A DNA stretch of 64,000 nt, taken from IMG/VR virus record IMGVR_UViG_3300025141_000018, one strand, 5' to 3'. Position 1 is the first letter of the stretch. Each line of letters starts with the position of its first letter. The translations under genes were made by a program, and so were the position numbers. Origin of the DNA: a virus. Its lineage: Duplodnaviria > Caudoviricetes. Under the pieces are notes generated by a model. That model did not search any database, was not told where the DNA came from, and was given only the letters and a program-made list of their open reading frames with translations. Below, one piece after another: positions 1,698-60,970 of this stretch.

Positions 1698-2582
1698 ATG
1701 ACACAATTAATTAACCCTGTTGAATTTACGACTGTGGTTAAGCGTCTTCGTTCCTTTTTCGATAACTTAAATTTTCAAGAAGTACACACCCAAAATAGAT
1801 TAAGCATACTTGCCGCTTGTGAGGACCCAACTACTGTTGCAACCTACGAGTATGGAGGCAAGATATGGCCACTTCCACAAACTGGACAAATGTGGCTTGA
1901 ATACGAACTACTAACAAAACCTGATTTGGCAGGTTGTTATTGTGTTAGTACAAGTTACAGGCAAGAGCAAAATCCACAGGAAGGCCGGCACGAAGTTATT
2001 TTTCCAATGTTTGAATTTGAATCACCAGGTGGTTTTGATGATTTATTAAAAATGGAAAGTGATTTATTAACACACCTCGGATTTAATTGTGATCACGGAA
2101 GAGCAGTTTACAATGATGGACTCATTGACTTCCCAGGTGGGTATTACCAAAGTATGGTAGCACATTATGCGGCGGCCAATAACGAGCTGACCAGTTACCA
2201 CGAAAGCAACATGTATGATGAATACGGAGATGTATTCTTCTTAACATTATTTCCTGAATCAACCAGTCCTTTCTGGAATATGAAAATTTCAGATCAAAGA
2301 GGACCAAAAGATATGAAACTTGCAAATAAATGTGACGTCATCATAGGAGGCATGGAAACTATTGGTAGTGCTGAGAGATCTTGTAATGTACAAGAAATGA
2401 AAGAGCAATTCTATACAATATCCGATGGCGGATATGCTGGTTTGCTATTTGATTTATTTGGTAAAGAGCGGGTAGAGTACGAACTTTTTGAATTTTTAAG
2501 TTATGATTTTAAACCACGTTATGGTGGTGGTATAGGAATAACACGCTTAATTGCAGGAATGAAAAAAGCGGGCCTGTTATAA
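1698..2582 (+). CDS. class IIb aaRS catalytic-domain-only protein (AsnRS/AspRS-like; archaeal-type asparagine synthetase-like)
   Basis: motif 1 RLRSFFDNLNFQEVHT, motif 2 SYRQEQNPQEGRHEVIFPMFEFE, motif 3 GGGIGITRL; no N-terminal OB anticodon-binding domain; TAAATA at 1661-1666 and SD AGGAG upstream. Confidence 0.85.
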   Translation: MTQLINPVEFTTVVKRLRSFFDNLNFQEVHTQNRLSILAACEDPTTVATYEYGGKIWPLPQTGQMWLEYELLTKPDLAGCYCVSTSYRQEQNPQEGRHEVIFPMFEFESPGGFDDLLKMESDLLTHLGFNCDHGRAVYNDGLIDFPGGYYQSMVAHYAAANNELTSYHESNMYDEYGDVFFLTLFPESTSPFWNMKISDQRGPKDMKLANKCDVIIGGMETIGSAERSCNVQEMKEQFYTISDGGYAGLLFDLFGKERVEYELFEFLSYDFKPRYGGGIGITRLIAGMKKAGLL

Positions 2583-2737
2583 TGACAGAGAATGCTGAAA
2601 ATGCATTTATAGACCTTTTCTTCTTTGAGAAATACGGATTTGCTAGTTGCTTTGAGTGCGACAAAACATTTACAGACCTTGTTGAACTAAGCAAGCATCA
2701 AGAGGAACATCTTAAAGAAGAACAGACTCTGGGGTGA
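2582..2737 (+). CDS. 51-aa C2H2 zinc-finger mini-protein (below ORF-track cutoff)
   Basis: MTENAENAFIDLFFFEKYGFASCFECDKTFTDLVELSKHQEEHLKEEQTLG; exact C-x2-C-x3-F-x5-L-x2-H-x3-H; start overlaps upstream stop (TAATG). Confidence 0.7.
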   Translation: MTENAENAFIDLFFFEKYGFASCFECDKTFTDLVELSKHQEEHLKEEQTLG

Positions 2738-2819
2738 CGAAACGGTAGACGTGGTACGTTGTTTGCGTATTGTCCCTTTGCAGAGGGGCGTGTTGGTTCG
2801 AATCCAACCCCCAGAGCCA
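2728..2819 (+). tRNA. atypical tRNA, anticodon GUU (Asn), long variable arm, encoded CCA
   Basis: acceptor TCTGGGG/CCCCAGA, G73, CCA; D stem ACG/CGT; anticodon stem GTACG/CGTAT with loop TTGTTTG; variable stem GTCCCTT/GAGGGGC; T arm GTTGG-TTCGAAT-CCAAC. Confidence 0.88.
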
Positions 2820-3108: not shown

Positions 3109-3290
3109 GGTAACATATCTCCTTTTTGTAACTGTTTTATCTTTCGATAAGCATGATCCAATTTAGATAATGTGTTAGTGTTTGATACCTCGACATACAC
3201 TCTACGTAATTCTCGAAGTATACGTTCTCGTTCTTTAATGTGTCCTCGGGGGTATTGTTTGTTAGTACTCATTATATTACTATTTAACAT
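3042..3290 (-). CDS. hypothetical protein
   Basis: basic ORF in the minus-strand gene run; 3' end overlaps the next gene. Confidence 0.45.
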   Translation of the reverse strand: MLNSNIMSTNKQYPRGHIKERERILRELRRVYVEVSNTNTLSKLDHAYRKIKQLQKGDMLPWIDIPVVPNSTLPTKKKLKKT

Positions 3291-4324
3291 GTTTCATAAT
3301 GCACGGCTTCAAGTATATCTGCACAACCTACAGTTTTATCACACGAAGTATAACATTCTCTTAATGGCTTATTTTCTAACATATCAAAAAAATCCTTTTG
3401 GTATTTGTCAGTATCTAATATTGTTTTAATATCATGTTTACTAGCATTATTCCAATCGTTACCTAACCAATTATAGATTTCTTTACCGGCACCACCTTCA
3501 TGTGATTCTGCTCGACTAGCATTCCACATACAACATGGTAATATATCTCCGTTTACTGTAAGATAAATTGCTGATCCTGCTAAACTTAAACATTTTATAT
3601 TATGATCGGGCGTTGGCTTTGGTAATGTAACAAAGTTATCTGATAACGGAGTTGCCAATGTAATAGGCCTTTTAAGGAAATTAATTGCTCTATCAGATTC
3701 GTTATAATCTAATACTGATCTAAATCTTTTACAACCCAGTTTTTTACTATACTCTTTAACTAATGGTACATTGTGTTTATTGTGTTTAAATATAACCATT
3801 TTCCATTCAGCAACTCCTCCATTGCTTATAAACGTATGCATATTACGTTCTATTAATTCCCAATTTTCACGAGCCGTTGATTGTCCTATTCTATATTTGC
3901 TATTAGCCTCACCTAAATCATCTATAGAAAATGTTATATATCTATTTTCTTTATTACAAAATTTTGCTAACTCCTTCCATACAGTTTCATTTCCTAATGT
4001 TCCGTTTGTATGAAAAAAGAATCTTATACGTTTGTTTCTTGAGGATACCATTGCTTCACAAATATCAAGAATACCTTTATGTCCAAGTGGATCGCCATAT
4101 GTACCTATAAATTCAATTTGTTTCCATAATAATGAGTTGGGACCTTCAAATAAGTTATGCTTGAATATATTAGGATCTAAATATTGATTATATATTACAT
4201 TATTGTTTTTATGTAACGTATTATTTTCATATCTGTATCGTTTACAGCCAGGGCAAAACAGATTACAAAATGTAGTTAATTCAACTTCTAATGTTATTTT
4301 ACCAAATTTATCTGTATTAAACAT
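3284..4324 (-). CDS. radical SAM protein with C-terminal SPASM/twitch-like domain
   Basis: CNLFCPGC (CxxxCxxC), GTYGDP, FSIDD, GDILPCCM, terminal CxxxC; start moved to MFNTDK. Confidence 0.88.
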   Translation of the reverse strand: MFNTDKFGKITLEVELTTFCNLFCPGCKRYRYENNTLHKNNNVIYNQYLDPNIFKHNLFEGPNSLLWKQIEFIGTYGDPLGHKGILDICEAMVSSRNKRIRFFFHTNGTLGNETVWKELAKFCNKENRYITFSIDDLGEANSKYRIGQSTARENWELIERNMHTFISNGGVAEWKMVIFKHNKHNVPLVKEYSKKLGCKRFRSVLDYNESDRAINFLKRPITLATPLSDNFVTLPKPTPDHNIKCLSLAGSAIYLTVNGDILPCCMWNASRAESHEGGAGKEIYNWLGNDWNNASKHDIKTILDTDKYQKDFFDMLENKPLRECYTSCDKTVGCADILEAVHYETC

Positions 4325-5342
4325 TTTTACCACACTTATGAAAACATGTCCGTATATATTCTTCTTTACGTAAAACTGCTGGTATGTGTTCTGCAAAATA
4401 CGGATGTTCAAATACTTTTGCTACGCCATGTTTTTTTATATTATTCCAGTCATTTGAATAATTATTAAAAAACTCTTTCATGTCGTCTTCTTTGTTTAAT
4501 CTATAATGATAACAACATGGCCACATTTCAAAATTATATGTAATAGCAATAGTTTTTCTTTCGTTAACATGCATACAATCAAATCCTTTTGGATTCTCTA
4601 ATCTTTCTTTTATTTGTTTTTCAATATGTTTAGTTTGCTTAGTAGTTTGTTTAGGTGCTATTACTTGTTTTAATTTGTTATGTGTTTCATTATATGTGTC
4701 TTGCGAAATATGTTGCTTTACTTCTTCTGTTACTTTTAACACATCATTTATTTTTCTAGTATTATGCATATAAAAATGAAAACCATATTCTTGTGCTTTC
4801 TTTTTTGTATACATAACATCGTCTATATTATGTCCAAATTGAATAAACTGCCAGCCACCTTTTCCTTCGTACTGTTTAAAAATATTTAAATTGCGTTCAA
4901 TTATTTCGTAGTCACTACCTATTCTATATTTTTCATTAACGGCTTGATGGCTACCATCTATTGCTACTACAAAACGTATTTTAGTTCCGCCTAGTTTATT
5001 TGTTAGCATAGCAATATTCCGCCAAGTCTCTTCCGTGCCTAATGTAGCATTAGTTGAAATATAAACAGTTTTTGCATTGTGGCTTAACAGAGCATCCACA
5101 ATACTAATGAAATCAGGATTGCCCATAGGGTCAGAGACACCACCAGACAAGGACCAATATACTTCATTTACTATTCCCTCATTTGCTAACCAGTTAATAT
5201 CATCAACCGTCCAATGCTTGATGGGTATTTTTTCTTTGCTTTTAACTACTCTATGATATCGTTCGCACAATACACAAGTTAAATTACAAAAACTAGTTAT
5301 TTCACAATCTACTTCGTGAACTTTCCGCATCGTTGTATACAA
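4317..5342 (-). CDS. radical SAM protein with C-terminal SPASM/twitch-like domain
   Basis: CNLTCVLC, GGVSDP, VAIDG, EMWPCCY, CFHKC. Confidence 0.88.
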   Translation of the reverse strand: MYTTMRKVHEVDCEITSFCNLTCVLCERYHRVVKSKEKIPIKHWTVDDINWLANEGIVNEVYWSLSGGVSDPMGNPDFISIVDALLSHNAKTVYISTNATLGTEETWRNIAMLTNKLGGTKIRFVVAIDGSHQAVNEKYRIGSDYEIIERNLNIFKQYEGKGGWQFIQFGHNIDDVMYTKKKAQEYGFHFYMHNTRKINDVLKVTEEVKQHISQDTYNETHNKLKQVIAPKQTTKQTKHIEKQIKERLENPKGFDCMHVNERKTIAITYNFEMWPCCYHYRLNKEDDMKEFFNNYSNDWNNIKKHGVAKVFEHPYFAEHIPAVLRKEEYIRTCFHKCGKNV

Positions 5343-11888: not shown

Positions 11889-12432
11889 CCCCGTCGTACC
11901 CTTCGTTCCAATCTGTTAATTTAGGATGTTCAAGGGGTGAAGACCACCATGCTTCCCAAGGAAAGTGTATCCATATATTCTCTGAGTCTTTAGCACAATC
12001 TCGTACCCAATATTGAGGTTTAAATTCTACTTCATTATTCCACCAAAGAGATGCAAAACGTATGTCGCATTCCTGAGCCCAAGGATGCATAGGTTCGCTA
12101 TTATCTCTGCGTCTAGCATCAATAAATCCTTGCATCTTTTCAAATGTTTCGCCACTATCACAAATGTCATCAACAATTAGTACTTTATTATCCGAGGGTT
12201 TTGGTAGGTAGGTATCCCAATGTGGGAAGTCTCTTAAACTTGCATGTACAGGCTTAAAAGGAAGGTTAAACCAATGCGAAAGCATAACGCCCGGTGTTAA
12301 ACCTCCACGTGATAACCCAACTATAACATCGGGTGTGAATTCATCTATTGCTAGTTGCCTTATAAGGGCATTTGTATCTAGCATCATATCTTTCCAACTA
12401 TACCATATAAACTTTGTCTGTGCTGACATCAT
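11848..12432 (-). CDS. type I phosphoribosyltransferase (Gpt/Hpt-like)
   Basis: VGLSRGG and PRPP-binding LIVDDICDSGET; W-I-H-F-P-W-E. Confidence 0.88.
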   Translation of the reverse strand: MMSAQTKFIWYSWKDMMLDTNALIRQLAIDEFTPDVIVGLSRGGLTPGVMLSHWFNLPFKPVHASLRDFPHWDTYLPKPSDNKVLIVDDICDSGETFEKMQGFIDARRRDNSEPMHPWAQECDIRFASLWWNNEVEFKPQYWVRDCAKDSENIWIHFPWEAWWSSPLEHPKLTDWNEGYDGVALNKPIRKKSSK

Positions 12433-13679
12433 ATCTCCTTGATTAAATTGTGTAACTCTGGTATATAATCTTTTAAATGTTTATTATAAACTGTATCTTG
12501 TACTTTATAATGTGTCTTAAAAGTATTAAAATATTCTTCATTAAATTTTGCATTCCTAAGTGCGGTCACGGCATTCATGCTTACACTATTTTCATGTTCT
12601 TTATTGTATATTAATATTTTTTCTAATGCGTTGTTTTTTACTGTCTGAGGAATTGCGTACAGGCCTGTCCATTCAGGTTCGGATACCCAATTTGGTAATA
12701 ATATATCTAAATTGTTATCATTGCACCATGTCCAGATATTAGTAATATCTAAAATATTAAAAATTGTTGTTGCAGTTTCAACATGGATTTCTTCGACATA
12801 GTCTTTAAATTTGTTAACATTACTATTTACTACATTCCAGTCGCCCGGGTGCCTTATATAATTGTATGTGTCGCCAATACCATCTATGCTAAGAACAAAC
12901 CAAGTCTTTTTAAATTTAGATAATTCATTATATATTTTTTTATTAAACAAAGTACCGTTAGTTGTTATTTGTACTACGCAATCTTTATTAAGTTGTTTAA
13001 GTACATTAACAAGTTCCGGTATTAACATTGGTTCCCCTCCAGTAATATTGAGTTCATATAATTCTCCACATGCTTCAATTAAACTTGATAGGAATTTTTT
13101 CTGTTGCCACCAACGACTACTTTGTACTGTTATACTTTCTTTTGATTGGCGTATAGGTTCTTTCCACCTTGCATCTTTAAATGCTTGTTGATTTTCATCT
13201 ACAATTTGTGACCACATGCTAGAACTTATAGGACTACACATTCTACATGCAAGATTACAGGTAGATCCAAAACGTATATCAATTTGCTTTATGGGAGTAT
13301 CAACATGTGTGCCTTGCTTAACAATGTTGAATATTTCAATTGGTGAGTATCCGTGCCAGGATGTTTCGACTGCCTTATCAAGAGCCAATTGGCGTTTACT
13401 GCGAACACCATTTAATTCTCGCTTATAGCATATTTCACAAGATCTATGCCACTTTCCAGCAAGCATAGTTGCTCGTACTTCTTTTGCATGTTTAGAATTC
13501 CAAAAGGATTGGATAGATGTATCTTTTACAGATAACGGAAGGCCATTTCGTTGTTCGCAACAATGACTAAGGGTGCATTCTATGCCAACATGAACTGTGG
13601 TCCAAGGCCATGGACAAATTGTTTTGCTAAAATCATGCAGGCTCGGCATCTGAGGTAGCCAATACTGATTTTGCTTCAA
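12429..13679 (-). CDS. radical SAM protein with N-terminal Cys-rich (twitch-like) domain
   Basis: CPWPW..HCC..CEIC then CNLACRMC, ITGGEP, TTNGT, SIDG. Confidence 0.9.
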   Translation of the reverse strand: MKQNQYWLPQMPSLHDFSKTICPWPWTTVHVGIECTLSHCCEQRNGLPLSVKDTSIQSFWNSKHAKEVRATMLAGKWHRSCEICYKRELNGVRSKRQLALDKAVETSWHGYSPIEIFNIVKQGTHVDTPIKQIDIRFGSTCNLACRMCSPISSSMWSQIVDENQQAFKDARWKEPIRQSKESITVQSSRWWQQKKFLSSLIEACGELYELNITGGEPMLIPELVNVLKQLNKDCVVQITTNGTLFNKKIYNELSKFKKTWFVLSIDGIGDTYNYIRHPGDWNVVNSNVNKFKDYVEEIHVETATTIFNILDITNIWTWCNDNNLDILLPNWVSEPEWTGLYAIPQTVKNNALEKILIYNKEHENSVSMNAVTALRNAKFNEEYFNTFKTHYKVQDTVYNKHLKDYIPELHNLIKEI

Positions 13680-17278: not shown

Positions 17279-17598
17279 TCGTAATAGTATTCCATTGGTG
17301 GGTCATTCCACATGTCTAAATGTGCTTTTGCTTCTTCACTCATCATATGTTGTCCCCACGGAGGATCAAACGTAATTTCAACATTTGCACTTTCGACTTC
17401 ATCTATTATTAATACTGCTTCTTTAACCCATCGGGGTAATTCCTCTGCTACGGGACAGAAGGGACTTGTTAAACTCATTAATATTTTAACATCTTTTTCT
17501 AAAATGTCAACATTATATATTAACCCTAAATCATATACGTTTACAGGTATTTCAGGATCAAAGACTGTTTTTAATTGTTCTATTATTTTCTCTTTCAT
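17275..17598 (-). CDS. sufT: SufT/DUF59 (MIP18-family) Fe-S assembly protein
   Basis: [32 protein letters not shown]. Confidence 0.92.
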
Positions 17599-18632
17599 AT
17601 TAAATGTGGACAGACATTTTCTAACTTTTGTTCTCTTGATTTATCTAATTCGTCTGTGTACGAATAAAATTTATCTAATAATTCTTTGCTACAAGGTTTT
17701 TTAACAACATCTACTATGTCTTTATATTCTGTATCTAAATATTTACTTATTATGTCTTCTTTAACTTTAGCAGGTAAAACCCATGCACCTAAGTGTGGTA
17801 TGTCAAAATTAAATCCATAGTTCATGTCTGTTCCTATTTCGTTTTCTATCCAAGATTTAAATTCTGCTATTTCATGTACATTATAGTTTGTTACAGTTGT
17901 ATGAATATCAATGTAACATATTTCTTTTAACTTTTTAGTATTTTCTAGTATAGTTTCGTAATCTGATTCAGGACCTCTTATATAGTTATGTGTTTCTTTA
18001 AATCCATCTATACTAACACTCATATCTATTTCAAACAAGTTAAGTTTATCTAACCAAGATGGTAATTTACTGGCATTAGTTGATGTAGTAATATGTATAT
18101 TTTTTGTATTATCAACTGTTGATAATTTGTCTATAAACTTTTCTACACTAGGCATTAAAAATGTTTCACCACCTTTAAGTTCTATATAAACTGTGCCAGT
18201 CTTAATACTGTTTGTTATGCTATATACTAAATCATTAATTGTATCCTCTGTTGCATCATATGCTCTACCATGTCTTTCTTGAAACCAACCTGTGCTATTT
18301 CCTGGATTACACATTCGACATCTAAGGTTACAAAAATTACCTAGGTTGATATCAAAAATTTTTATATCCTGACTAGTAAATTTTTTACCTTGTTTTTCTA
18401 AATATTGTCGTCTACTTCTTACATTATTTTCTTCAGCAGTTTTACAATCAATACATCCTATAGGCCAATTACCTTGGCGCATTTTTTCAATTTCGTTTTC
18501 ATATATAGGTTGTAGTGAAGTGAACTTATACTCTGGCTTATATGGTATTCTTTGTTTAAACCAACAACAAGGTGATATAGCCCCCCACGGAGTAAGTTGT
18601 ATTGCTTGTGTAAATGCTATGCATGGTTTCAT
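17595..18632 (-). CDS. radical SAM protein with N-terminal Cys-rich domain, inside the suf cluster
   Basis: PCCW..CIDC then CNLRCRMC, LKGGET, SIDG. Confidence 0.88.
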   Translation of the reverse strand: MKPCIAFTQAIQLTPWGAISPCCWFKQRIPYKPEYKFTSLQPIYENEIEKMRQGNWPIGCIDCKTAEENNVRSRRQYLEKQGKKFTSQDIKIFDINLGNFCNLRCRMCNPGNSTGWFQERHGRAYDATEDTINDLVYSITNSIKTGTVYIELKGGETFLMPSVEKFIDKLSTVDNTKNIHITTSTNASKLPSWLDKLNLFEIDMSVSIDGFKETHNYIRGPESDYETILENTKKLKEICYIDIHTTVTNYNVHEIAEFKSWIENEIGTDMNYGFNFDIPHLGAWVLPAKVKEDIISKYLDTEYKDIVDVVKKPCSKELLDKFYSYTDELDKSREQKLENVCPHLI

Positions 18633-36542: not shown

Positions 36543-37142
36543 TTATTGATCCCACCTATAAAAAATATGTGTGTCAATATGTACGGTTTGTTTATAATCT
36601 CGTCGTTTCCCCCACCTAGGCACATCTATATAATCTGCATGGTAATGGGTTGCGCCTTCTGTAAAATCTATAATCATCATTGATCGCTTTAAAAAATACT
36701 TTGTTAAAGCAATCGAATAAACATATGCTTTAATATTCGCTGGCCTGTCATCTTTGCCATCGCAATACCAACTAAATTGACACATATCCCTATAAGGGAA
36801 ATATGCATCCTTGCGTTTTACATACCTATGTTTGCCCTCATGCACTACTCCACAAATCGTATTTGGAAATCTTTTGTCTGCCACTCTATTCATTGTAACT
36901 AAAATTACTGCTACTTTGCCCGCCAAACTTTCGTTGCGAGCTTCGTGGTAGATATTCATTGCCATGCATTTTATTTCCGCTGGAGTAAATGCTATAAACG
37001 TATTCCGATATTTTGGTTCCGAATGTTTTTTAATTGTCATTTCGGCTTTTGCTATTTTTATCTTTTCTGTGTTAGCCGCGATTGTCGTGCATCCTATAAA
37101 GATACAGGTCAAGGTGGCTATACAAAGTTTTCTAAAACTCAT
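36543..37142 (-). CDS. cell wall hydrolase (SleB/Hydrolase_2 family)
   Basis: signal-like N-terminus; NIYHEARNE, NRV..FPNTICGVV, QFSW, GATHYHA; start at MSFRK. Confidence 0.9.
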   Translation of the reverse strand: MSFRKLCIATLTCIFIGCTTIAANTEKIKIAKAEMTIKKHSEPKYRNTFIAFTPAEIKCMAMNIYHEARNESLAGKVAVILVTMNRVADKRFPNTICGVVHEGKHRYVKRKDAYFPYRDMCQFSWYCDGKDDRPANIKAYVYSIALTKYFLKRSMMIIDFTEGATHYHADYIDVPRWGKRRDYKQTVHIDTHIFYRWDQ

Positions 37143-37199
37143 ATATACTATCCTTTTTAATTTTTTACTACATTTATACAAGATAAGTTTTAAGGAAAA

Positions 37200-37231
37200 A
37201 CCCAGCCATGCCTTCATGGCTATAACTGGGT
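37200..37231 (-). terminator. intrinsic terminator
   Basis: AGCCATG-AAGG-CATGGCT hairpin then GGGTTTTT. Confidence 0.65.
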
Positions 37232-37247: not shown

Positions 37248-37475
37248 TTACTTCTTGCTATAAATACCCCATAAAATCCAAAGGGCAATTAAGCCAACAA
37301 GTCCTTCACCACCTAATGCTTTCACGAATGCGATTACATTTCCCAGGATGTCGAAAGGAAGGAATACTACGTTCGCTCCAAAAATGATTTGAAGAACTAT
37401 ACCCATCATCAGAATCGATAATCCAACTTCTGTTAAACCTCGTATCCAAGCAGATACACTTTTGATAATATCCAT
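37248..37475 (-). CDS. 75-aa two-TM membrane protein
   Basis: SD AGGAG; hydrophobic; start at MDIIK. Confidence 0.7.
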   Translation of the reverse strand: MDIIKSVSAWIRGLTEVGLSILMMGIVLQIIFGANVVFLPFDILGNVIAFVKALGGEGLVGLIALWILWGIYSKK

Positions 37476-37497
37476 CTTATTTTTTCTCCTAAAATGA

Positions 37498-37817
37498 AAG
37501 GTTGATTCTGTTTCCAGGTTCAACCTTTAAAACCCACTAAATTATGCGGCTAACGCCATTGCATAATTAGGACTATACTCTGCATTGTTTGCAGTTATTG
37601 TTAATACAGTCTCTCCGATGCATCATTACGCTGTCGAAATCTATTTCGCCCCCATCAGCGAAATACAACATCTAAAATCCATATTAACCCTCCGGAGCCC
37701 AATAAAATTACAAAGGCCCAAAATAGGTTTTGATTGCTCATTGTTGTACCTCTCTGGTGGAGGCGGGCGGTATCGCACCGCCGTCCAAACGTCGTCAACA
37801 AAGTGTCATCGACCGTG
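37498..37817 (-). ncRNA. ssrA: circularly permuted (two-piece) tmRNA gene
   Basis: acceptor piece ends GGCGG-TGCGATA-CCGCC-CGCCTCC-A-CCA (37782-37755); coding piece starts GGGGGCG at 37653 with G3.U70; tag ANNAEYSPNYAMALAA* at 37592-37542; TAAATA at 37827-37822; 3' hairpin at 37497-37528; outer ends approximate. Confidence 0.92.
37655..37741 (-). CDS. 28-aa hydrophobic peptide in the tmRNA intervening segment
   Basis: SD GAGAGG (37754-37749), 7-nt spacer, ATG; MSNQNLFWAFVILLGSGGLIWILDVVFR*. Confidence 0.6.
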   Translation of the reverse strand: MSNQNLFWAFVILLGSGGLIWILDVVFR

Positions 37818-37835
37818 TGTATATTTACCTGAATT

Positions 37836-38264
37836 TCAGGTAGATTCCCCGGAATTACACCGAGGTGCGTGGATCTCAACTAGGTAAGATTCACGTTTTT
37901 CTAGCACTTTTTTACTAGTAAAATTAGCACACGGGGTAAATATAACCTCCACGTCATCTAATGTATCCTTGGTAAAAAATATGTGCCTAAACTCATCCCA
38001 ACTTTTAGTTTGTCTTGTTCCGTGTTTAGTAATGCCTAACAACTTTCTTGCATGTTGTCGTAATCTTTGTGGTGTTCCAGCATTATAACTGGTATTATCA
38101 CTTGCATTAATTCCGATATAAAAAATGCCAAAACTTGGCGAACTTAGCATATAAATGCCTTGAGAACGAATCTCTTTTGGTGAATCTTTCCGTGTTCTGA
38201 CACTAAAACTGTTATCTTTTGGTATAAAATCTAGAATTTTTTTTAAAGGAAATTTATACTGCAT
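37836..38264 (-). CDS. GIY-YIG homing endonuclease-like protein
   Basis: GIYMLSSPSFGIFYIG, RLRQH, E...N; apparently leaderless from a TTGACT-N18-TATAAT promoter at 38301-38272. Confidence 0.8.
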   Translation of the reverse strand: MQYKFPLKKILDFIPKDNSFSVRTRKDSPKEIRSQGIYMLSSPSFGIFYIGINASDNTSYNAGTPQRLRQHARKLLGITKHGTRQTKSWDEFRHIFFTKDTLDDVEVIFTPCANFTSKKVLEKRESYLVEIHAPRCNSGEST

Positions 38265-38297
38265 AAACTGTATTATAACATAGATGTTACAAAAAAG

Positions 38298-38594
38298 TCA
38301 AGAGATTTTATATAACGTGTAGATCCAAGTTAATTCTTCGCCGGCTTTAATATCACGATTTGTTCGAATATACCAACCAGCACCATCTACTAAAGAATCC
38401 CAAAACTTCATACAATTAGGATTATTGGAATGATTACCAAACGCACCTAACGGAGTTCTTACTATATTTCCGTTAACAAAAAAATGGATTTGTCCTAACA
38501 TTTTACCTTCTGGAATGTCTTTGGTAGCAAATAAACCAAGACCATGAATTCCCGAATCTTTAATGGTTACTAATTCCGGAAGTGGATTATACAT
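38298..38594 (-). CDS. minimal SET-domain methyltransferase
   Basis: GLGLFA, NHSNNPN, DIKAGEELT.Y. Confidence 0.88.
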   Translation of the reverse strand: MYNPLPELVTIKDSGIHGLGLFATKDIPEGKMLGQIHFFVNGNIVRTPLGAFGNHSNNPNCMKFWDSLVDGAGWYIRTNRDIKAGEELTWIYTLYKIS

Positions 38595-60476: not shown

Positions 60477-60571
60477 AATAAATATATATTACACTATTTA
60501 GGTTGTTTTCGCAACCTTTATTATGGGGCACCATCCCCGTAGTGGATAGAACCCACTTTAGGAGAAAACAA

Positions 60572-60970
60572 ATGGGAAGACCAATTAGTAAAAGACATAT
60601 CGGTACACCCGATGCTGGCAACGAATTAAAATGTCGGTATCATACCGGAGCCGCAGAAGTAAACGGCTGGATTGTTGCACAAAAAGGTACCAAGCGATAT
60701 AAATGCTACGATGGTTCCACTTATGCAACATGCTCATTAGTTGATAAAGCACAAGGTACATTAGCCGCTGGCGAAATGACTGTTACTGTTAAAGACGATG
60801 GCGGAACAGTTCGCCAGGTCACAAAAATTACAGGACATAGAGTTATGCTTGATTCAGGCACATCTCAGCCTTGGACATTTACAACAGATGCCGCTGATGA
60901 CAAAGTGGAAATTGAAGAAGCAGGTACGGACGATTCCTTTACCGGCGCAGACGATTTCGAAGCAGACTGA
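60572..60970 (+). CDS. hypothetical protein
   Basis: SD AGGAG before MGRPISK; TAAATA at 60479-60484. Confidence 0.75.
   Translation: MGRPISKRHIGTPDAGNELKCRYHTGAAEVNGWIVAQKGTKRYKCYDGSTYATCSLVDKAQGTLAAGEMTVTVKDDGGTVRQVTKITGHRVMLDSGTSQPWTFTTDAADDKVEIEEAGTDDSFTGADDFEAD

Follow-up and report, generated by a model that had tools for sequence, protein, structure and literature searches.

In bacterial two-piece tmRNAs, the spacer forms a short hairpin that is believed to present the RNA ends for processing. A bacterial two-piece tmRNA of this kind, the Caulobacter type, was reportedly described by Keiler and colleagues in 2000. Among phages, a two-piece tmRNA gene is found in marine myophages (Melnitz and pelagimyophages); the gene, its phylogeny and a glutamine riboswitch are reported, and no ORF is described in the intervening segment (PMC9004378). 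A 2025 tmRNA database records unusual spacers that hold only a tRNA gene or a repeat element, and it describes group I introns in the T loop of tmRNA genes with homing-endonuclease ORFs of more than 100 codons (PMC11915505). [quoted passage not shown] A peptide gene in a tmRNA spacer is absent from the literature that we found, including PMC11915505, PMC9004378 and a review of permuted tRNA genes (PMC3978253), in a full-text search with most subscription journals outside it; this agrees with the original prediction, in which no description of a dedicated peptide gene in this segment was known.

We analyzed a 64,000-nucleotide stretch of DNA (the window) from a marine phage of the Caudoviricetes (IMG/VR record IMGVR_UViG_3300025141_000018), which has a G+C content of ~34%, carries nearly all its genes on the minus strand and encodes a class II ribonucleotide reductase, helicases, radical-SAM enzymes and an endolysin. 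On comparative sequence grounds, the excised spacer of its two-piece tmRNA is confirmed to carry a small gene, which is conserved, lies within a conserved hairpin and is predicted to encode a membrane peptide of 28 residues. Our reading, to which we assign a probability of about 0.8, is that the spacer consists of a stem-closed hairpin with an enlarged loop holding a genuine gene for a single-pass hydrophobic peptide of 27–33 residues, and that this gene is translated from the tmRNA precursor.

The permuted tmRNA gene is called by ARAGORN at 37451–37849 on the minus strand, as are the other features of the locus given below, and it matches the Rfam family RF04321 (tmRNA_permuted) with 78.4 bits against a cut-off of 47 bits; its relatives score 69–87 bits. 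With RF01849, the alphaproteobacterial tmRNA family (50-bit cut-off), the window gives no match at the gathering threshold, while relatives L007–L017 score 56–70 bits. The permuted order is evident from the sequence and the cmscan alignment: an acceptor piece with an encoded CCA (37755–37811, comprising the T arm, the 3′ strand of the acceptor stem and ACCA, as delimited by the RF04321 alignment, ARAGORN and the sequence) is followed by an intervening segment of 101 nt (37654–37754, from the RF04321 alignment and the sequence) and by the coding piece, which starts at G1 (37451–37653, from ARAGORN, RF04321 and the sequence). The acceptor stem of 7 bp, G1–G7 with C66–C72 and a G3:U70 pair, is legible straight from the sequence, and the tag frame (37592–37542) encodes ANNAEYSPNYAMALAA, with a hydrophobic tail of the ...ALAA type and a stop. 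The spacer layout is exactly as originally claimed: directly after the CCA, which ends at 37755, an SD sequence GAGAGG (37754–37749) is followed by 7 nt, an ATG (37741–37739), a frame of 28 sense codons encoding MSNQNLFWAFVILLGSGGLIWILDVVFR, a TGA (37657–37655) and a single T at 37654 before G1 at 37653. The ORF with its TGA thus occupies 37655–37741 and, from the sequence, its relatives and selection tests, is predicted to encode a hydrophobic peptide with a single helix. We found no Rfam match inside the spacer and no intron fold.

Similarly to the Melnitz gene, the gene in the window is a permuted ssrA, apparently of the alphaproteobacterial type, in an AT-rich uncultured or marine phage and lies behind a candidate phage promoter, but its spacer carries an ORF, while none is described for Melnitz (PMC9004378). 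With the spacers of alphaproteobacterial genes it shares the position between CCA and G1, the closure by the acceptor stem, a hairpin a few nucleotides from the ends and TGAT-like leaders. The sampled bacterial spacers differ in being short and in lacking a hydrophobic ORF with SD and ATG. An alpha-type tmRNA scores above the family cut-off in 146 of 151 alphaproteobacterial genomes (a tally that includes G043), and from these genes we sampled the 30 best-scoring and 20 of the longest, of which 44 loci were parsed by ARAGORN, with 3 further loci added. In this sample, the permuted spacers measure 5–133 nt (median 40), none has a hydrophobic ORF, and the longest ORF starting in a spacer has 22 aa. 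When genomes were scanned for tmRNAs sharing this T loop, most matches came from Caulobacterales, in which ~90 spacers are hairpins of 22–37 nt without an ORF. Within the genomes searched, the spacer ORF is thus particular to the phage genes, as opposed to their bacterial ancestors. One bacterial genome, G003 (L141 / L172), has a permuted tmRNA with an unusually long spacer of ~118 nt that ARAGORN does not parse.

Relatives of the phage tmRNA were collected in ways that did not involve the spacer. With the 75-aa membrane protein encoded downstream as query, we obtained 20 viral contigs, 16 of which have a permuted tmRNA at the same place. Scans of IMG/VR and of metagenomes used patterns from the mature coding piece alone, making the search blind to the spacer; one of these scans gave 30 matches, of which 15 were new contigs, and among these only L022 and L027 have real tmRNAs, the other 13 being chance matches or lacking an upstream CCA, mostly in GC-rich DNA. 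A blastn search of GenBank phages with the tmRNA region of the window and that of relative L012 gave no match. All searches pooled, this phage tmRNA family is represented by 23 distinct spacers; in L007–L017, in which the tmRNA is found by Rfam and missed by ARAGORN, the spacer limits were taken from the CCA and G1 motifs. All relatives with the tmRNA have the same gene order, i.e. a gene for a protein of 700–830 aa, the tmRNA, in some cases an extra ORF, the gene for the 75-aa membrane protein and the endolysin gene. This order points to one phage lineage, and the 23 spacers are therefore not independent origins. The whole tmRNA including the ORF is missing from L006, and both are thus dispensable. 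In L006 (2480–3003), the promoter and the GIY-YIG-like ORF described below are kept, the break lies directly after a shared hairpin and a TAAATA motif, and ~75 nt stand in place of ~390 nt. The two most distant relatives reached through the 75-aa protein, L020 and L021, have a manA RNA motif (RF01745, 73–78 bits) in the tmRNA slot just upstream of the 75-aa gene, at 2738–2958 and 2713–2930, respectively.

An ATG ORF of 27–33 codons encoding a single hydrophobic helix is present in all 23 distinct spacers and is decayed in none, its frame, start and stop being kept across diverged relatives (23/23). In sequence, the peptides form eight or more groups with no possible alignment between them, as illustrated by MDGRDIILTIILMGGAGTLVLILDAMFR, MEKSFMWIAIIIILILIITYGVLYFGYDFR, MSNNKMFILTILALGIVVVGAYIIVIFYL and MDGEFATIVIISLIIGIVLFGINFLENNSIWLF from different spacers. 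Nevertheless, all groups share one design, in which a few polar N-terminal residues lead into a single hydrophobic stretch (~20 residues) that ends in a short tail, and the maximal Kyte-Doolittle mean over 17 residues is 1.7–3.0 in all of them. When the window spacer is shuffled with its dinucleotides preserved, 8% of the shuffles contain an ATG ORF of at least 27 codons, 2% have an SD in addition and 0.02% also reach equal hydrophobicity. Across spacers, the corresponding values are 4–21% for the ORF and 0.7–3% with an SD-like motif, and 0–0.4% of the shuffles per group combine ORF, SD and a hydrophobicity at least equal to that observed.

The ORF also carries a signature of selection at the amino acid level. 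In the window's group A (four members), the Nei-Gojobori dN/dS is 0.04–0.13, and pS exceeds pN for each pair (Fisher p 2e-5 to 7e-3; the pairs are not independent), with the synonymous excess still significant over the 23 codons outside the helix described below. More divergent comparisons in three other groups gave 0.27–0.42, 0.34–0.61 and 0.32–0.66; in groups C, F and H, dN/dS is thus moderately below 1 and single pairs are not significant. Because selection in the window's group is combined with retention in 23 of 23 spacers, we regard the spacer ORF as a real, selected protein-coding gene, as judged by these comparisons, and the tmRNA precursor is very probably also an mRNA, as originally inferred; the persistence of a hydrophobic helix across unrelated peptides adds to this view. 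The part of the original prediction that did not carry over to the relatives is the exact abutment, as the positions of both SD and stop vary (see below).

Scans of the spacer peptides against Pfam and PHROG gave no usable match and no holin; for the window peptide, no Pfam family, and thus no S23p, was reached at E up to 1. The window peptide has no internal Lys or Arg. Because the peptide matches no known family, it is its composition, one hydrophobic stretch between short polar ends, that points to a small single-pass membrane protein. A holin is not indicated for the window peptide, which has 28 aa and no family match and whose ORF is separated from the endolysin gene by the 75-aa gene. 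Similarly, the purifying selection on the amino acid sequence and the maintained hydrophobic character argue against a leader peptide or attenuator.

Each of the 23 spacers is closed by a helix of 10–13 bp in a fixed register, beginning 2 nt after the CCA and ending 6 nt before G1, as established by folding, duplex prediction and an anchored pair count. In the window, the 5′ strand (spacer nt 3–13; 37742–37752) overlaps the SD GAGAGG and the 3′ strand (spacer nt 85–95; 37660–37670) coincides with codons 24–28 of the ORF; the six unpaired nucleotides before G1 are usually GTTGAT. Pairs 1–10 are formed in 22–23 of the 23 sequences, and at most of them both partners have changed, e.g. GC/AT/TA for pair 1 and TA/CG/GC/AT for pair 5. 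Across 13 representatives, pairing holds in 135 of 143 cells as compared with 96.9 ± 6.1 when partners are shuffled among sequences, and none of 5000 shuffles reaches 135. The alignments thus show that the predicted helix is kept by compensatory changes. Its energy is about −8 to −17 kcal/mol, and it sequesters the SD. In most groups, the SD/start region lies within the helix, and the ATG too falls inside it in groups C, D and E. The helix of groups G and H is neither purine-rich nor SD-like, and a separate GGAG or AGGAG with an ATG is located in the loop, 12–45 nt inside; helix and ribosome-binding site are therefore distinct features that are individually conserved. Because the SD is sequestered, and is degenerate (AAGAAAG) in subgroup C2, the purine run after the CCA could be there mainly to pair with the pyrimidine-rich leader.

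The closing helix, which the original prediction overlooked, explains much of the tight layout that attracted attention to this spacer. The exact abutment of the ORF on both mature ends, on which the original prediction relied, is not conserved among the groups: the stop precedes G1 by 1 nt in groups A, B and C, by 9 nt in D, E, F and G and by 12 nt in H, while the SD lies 0 to ~45 nt from the CCA, with SD and ATG 12–45 nt inside in two groups. A TGAT precedes G1 in 22 of the 23 spacers, including those in which the ORF stops earlier (the L224/L225 spacer ends in TGAA), and also in some bacterial tmRNAs. The stop codon in the window is thus borrowed from a conserved TGAT leader, which explains the exact fit without invoking design. 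Because this fit is not universal, the proposal that ribosome loading and termination gate tmRNA maturation, or that maturation shuts off the peptide, is somewhat weakened and stands as inference.

A TAAATA motif (37822–37827), ~11 nt before the tmRNA 5′ end, is a candidate late-type promoter and is invariant in nine of nine aligned relatives; in the non-coding DNA of the window it is enriched 4.5-fold on the gene strand and is often found 10–40 nt before ORF starts, which is compatible with a T4-like late promoter. Further upstream, a sigma-70-like promoter, TTGACT-18-TATAAT (38272–38301; 11/12 matches, TG extended), was identified by motif match before an ORF of 142 aa (37836–38264) that we tentatively name GIY-YIG-like from a GIY-x10-YIG-like motif seen by eye and that is found only in the window's group and the tmRNA-less L006. 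In relatives without this ORF, a TTGACA-17-TATAAT promoter abuts the tmRNA directly, as is the case in most relatives. Only in the window's group do the 142-aa ORF and a SET-domain gene (PF00856, 38298–38594) form an insertion that separates the tmRNA from the large gene upstream; the two (37836–38594) may be a mobile endonuclease cassette. Directly downstream of the tmRNA, the gene order places the gene for the 75-aa membrane protein (37248–37475), a candidate holin, followed by a cell-wall hydrolase gene (37217–36543, i.e. 36543–37217 on the minus strand) identified as endolysin by matches to Pfam PF07486 (8.5e-20) and to an endolysin PHROG. Inspection of this ORF by eye shows a lipoprotein-like signal (…LTCIFIGC…) after an internal Met, suggesting an exported or lipid-anchored enzyme. 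Pfam and PHROG scans of the 142-aa ORF and the 75-aa protein gave no usable match. A metatranscriptome contig (depth 2, identical sequence) spans 37478–37641, inside the coding piece, and fits an expressed tmRNA; the spacer lies outside the contig, which is uninformative about it. A second metatranscriptome run gave a contig over part of the 75-aa gene of a relative, and a third gave no match.

These observations lead us to suggest the following sequence of events. Translation of the peptide would take place on the tmRNA precursor, which is probably transcribed late. The SD/start region lies in the 5′ strand of the helix and would be transcribed ~80 nt before its pairing partner, the last codons, so that ribosomes could load on the nascent RNA while the folded RNA would be a poor message. 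On reaching the last codons, a ribosome would open the helix and cover G1 and the first bases of the acceptor stem; translation would thereby exclude tRNA-like folding and RNase P cleavage on the same molecule. The closing helix would stack under the acceptor stem and probably present both the CCA end and the cleavage site of RNase P to the processing enzymes. Excision would presumably involve RNase P and 3′-end nucleases, and after folding and processing the spacer would be discarded and peptide synthesis would end. The peptide most likely has an accessory (cargo) function in the host inner membrane and takes no part in trans-translation. We favor a cargo because the cargo of other phages is heterogeneous, the turnover of the peptide is fast, and the tmRNA is absent from L006 and replaced by the manA RNA in L020 and L021.

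Alternatively, the ORF might matter for its translation and not for its product. In this regulatory scheme, which was the idea of the original prediction, ribosome passage from the CCA to G1 would hold the acceptor stem open and gate RNase P and 3′-end processing, tying tmRNA output to the translational capacity of the cell and leaving the peptide irrelevant. The acceptor stem and the closing helix together close the loop in which the ORF sits, the ORF is never lost where the tmRNA is kept, and its stop lies within 12 nt of G1 in 23 of 23 spacers, placing a terminating ribosome over G1 and the 3′ strand of the helix. However, purifying selection on the amino acid sequence in the window's group would be unexpected if only passage mattered, every group retains a single hydrophobic helix although the sequence has turned over completely, the distances from stop to G1 and from SD to CCA vary, and other phage spacers carry non-membrane ORFs, some of which run 13–42 nt into the mature tmRNA. 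We consider a purely regulatory ORF quite unlikely. The idea that the open frame is simply a by-product of an AT-rich hairpin spacer is close to refuted: ORFs of sufficient length do arise in 4–21% of spacer shuffles, and the SD, the start and the last codons are partly constrained by the RNA helix, but neither accounts for a frame, an ATG and a hydrophobic product in every distinct spacer, for a dN/dS well below 1 that extends outside the helix, or for a joint shuffle probability of at most 0.4% per group.

The genomic setting raises another alternative, in which the peptide belongs to the lysis module as a tiny holin-, antiholin- or pinholin-like protein that is made late with the 75-aa protein and the endolysin and tunes the timing of lysis. 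Its size and shape are those of a membrane-active peptide, a TAAATA late-type motif lies upstream of the tmRNA, and in every relative the tmRNA is located between the gene for the 700–830-aa protein and the cassette of the 75-aa gene and the PF07486 endolysin. This synteny, however, reflects a single lineage, the peptide resembles no holin or lysis family, the 75-aa gene is still present in relatives that lack the tmRNA (L006, L018–L021), and the spacers of other phages hold non-membrane cargo. A role in lysis therefore appears unlikely to us, and we continue to favor an accessory membrane peptide with its own selected gene.

Support for the idea that the spacer can accommodate small genes comes from other viruses. 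IMG/VR was scanned for the arrangement CCA-spacer-G1, matches were validated by T-arm and acceptor-stem pairing, and an ORF was scored if an SD and ATG preceded a frame covering at least 60% of the spacer, with one shuffle of each spacer as control; all counts are among the matches listed, and low GC means <0.36. Among these matches, an ORF is present in none of 69 distinct validated spacers of 20–50 nt (shuffles, 0; low-GC spacers with ORF, 0/50), in 11 of 58 spacers of 90–120 nt (shuffles, 3; low-GC, 9/15) and in 13 of 47 spacers of 120–150 nt (shuffles, 0; low-GC, 13/26). A closing helix of at least 7 bp is found in 55 of the 58 listed spacers of 90–120 nt. The ORFs belong to unrelated families, some membrane-like and some polar or cysteine-bearing, and several extend 13–42 nt into the mature tmRNA. 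Because ORFs of unrelated families fill AT-rich viral spacers, the spacer appears to be a slot that is permissive for small genes in phages with AT-rich DNA, and the family of the window would be one well-sampled instance. Conserved non-membrane spacer ORFs of 32–45 codons, e.g. MDFHWISWTKGEPFQWGDFRYN… and M[FL]KW…KHQGDLSKHRLHT…, form the sets L372, L395, L439 and L456; L388, L411 and L457; L423 and L434; and L262, L318 and L321, and several of them end 13 nt inside the mature tmRNA.

It is tempting to speculate that the stem-closed spacer of phage two-piece tmRNAs is a general, exchangeable slot for the expression of small genes in which translation of the cargo is mechanically coupled to tmRNA maturation, a joint reading that we hold to be doubtful. 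If it were true, loading only on the nascent, unfolded spacer would give roughly one pulse of peptide per tmRNA made, and the acceptor stem would be kept open by the ribosome at the stop codon. In the groups with the stop 1 nt before G1, the RNase P cut would leave a message ending just after the stop codon, so that the peptide could become a substrate of its own tmRNA.

Among RNAs that combine an RNA-level function with a translated small ORF on one transcript are SgrS/SgrT, RNAIII/delta-haemolysin and SR1/SR1P. Those RNAs are base-pairing regulators with the ORF in the mature RNA, whereas the phage ORF lies in a part that is removed during the maturation of a tRNA-like RNA. The type I toxins and small hydrophobic peptides of the hok, tisB and aapA1 kind, which have 19–40 aa and a structurally masked SD, are similar to the phage spacer gene in size, in having a single hydrophobic helix and in having the SD/start region in a long-range helix with the 3′ part of the message. 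By virtue of this masking, translation is expected to be limited to a window of time or to need processing. The spacer peptide has no sequence similarity to these peptides, and the likeness is resemblance and not membership. Similarly to the group I introns of ssrA, the phage spacer is a segment of the ssrA gene that is removed and that houses a protein gene, but those introns are self-splicing, while the phage spacer lacks an intron fold and its predicted product is a membrane peptide of 28 aa (PMC11915505). The Coxiella IVS is likewise a stem-closed segment that is cut from the precursor of a stable RNA and holds an ORF; in contrast to the S23p ORF described there as decaying, the phage spacer ORF is under purifying selection and kept in all tmRNA-bearing relatives, and its peptide is no S23p (PMC4990558).

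Elsewhere in the window, we note several further features. The region 1698–2819 (plus strand) contains an ORF of 294 aa (PHROG 29758, unknown function) in which a class II synthetase-like GGGIGITRL motif was seen by eye; after it, an ORF of 51 aa with a CxxC...HxxxH pattern (2582–2737, plus strand), the C2H2 ORF of the original prediction, overlaps with its end a tRNA-Asn(GTT) of 92 nt (2728–2819). A freshwater-2 RNA motif (RF02980, 58.2 versus 49.9 bits) at 60500–60574 (plus strand) ends in AGGAGAAAACAAATG, which provides the SD and start codon of a plus-strand ORF. Several proteins with radical-SAM domains by PHROG matches are encoded in this one window (3284–4411, 12429–13679 and 17595–18632, minus strand).

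Spacers of tmRNAs have so far been treated as discarded non-coding RNA, while here the excised spacer would double as a messenger. Genes of this kind go unseen because annotation masks the spacer as part of an RNA gene and ORFs of fewer than 30 codons are not called. The locus is a compact natural case in which a coding constraint overlaps an RNA-structural constraint imposed by a helix that serves a different purpose, and it offers a system for studying how, on one transcript, translation competes with the steps by which a stable RNA folds and is processed. Finally, we note that this phage lineage has kept a peptide gene in the tmRNA spacer through extensive sequence turnover, making tmRNA spacers a new place to look for small proteins of phages.
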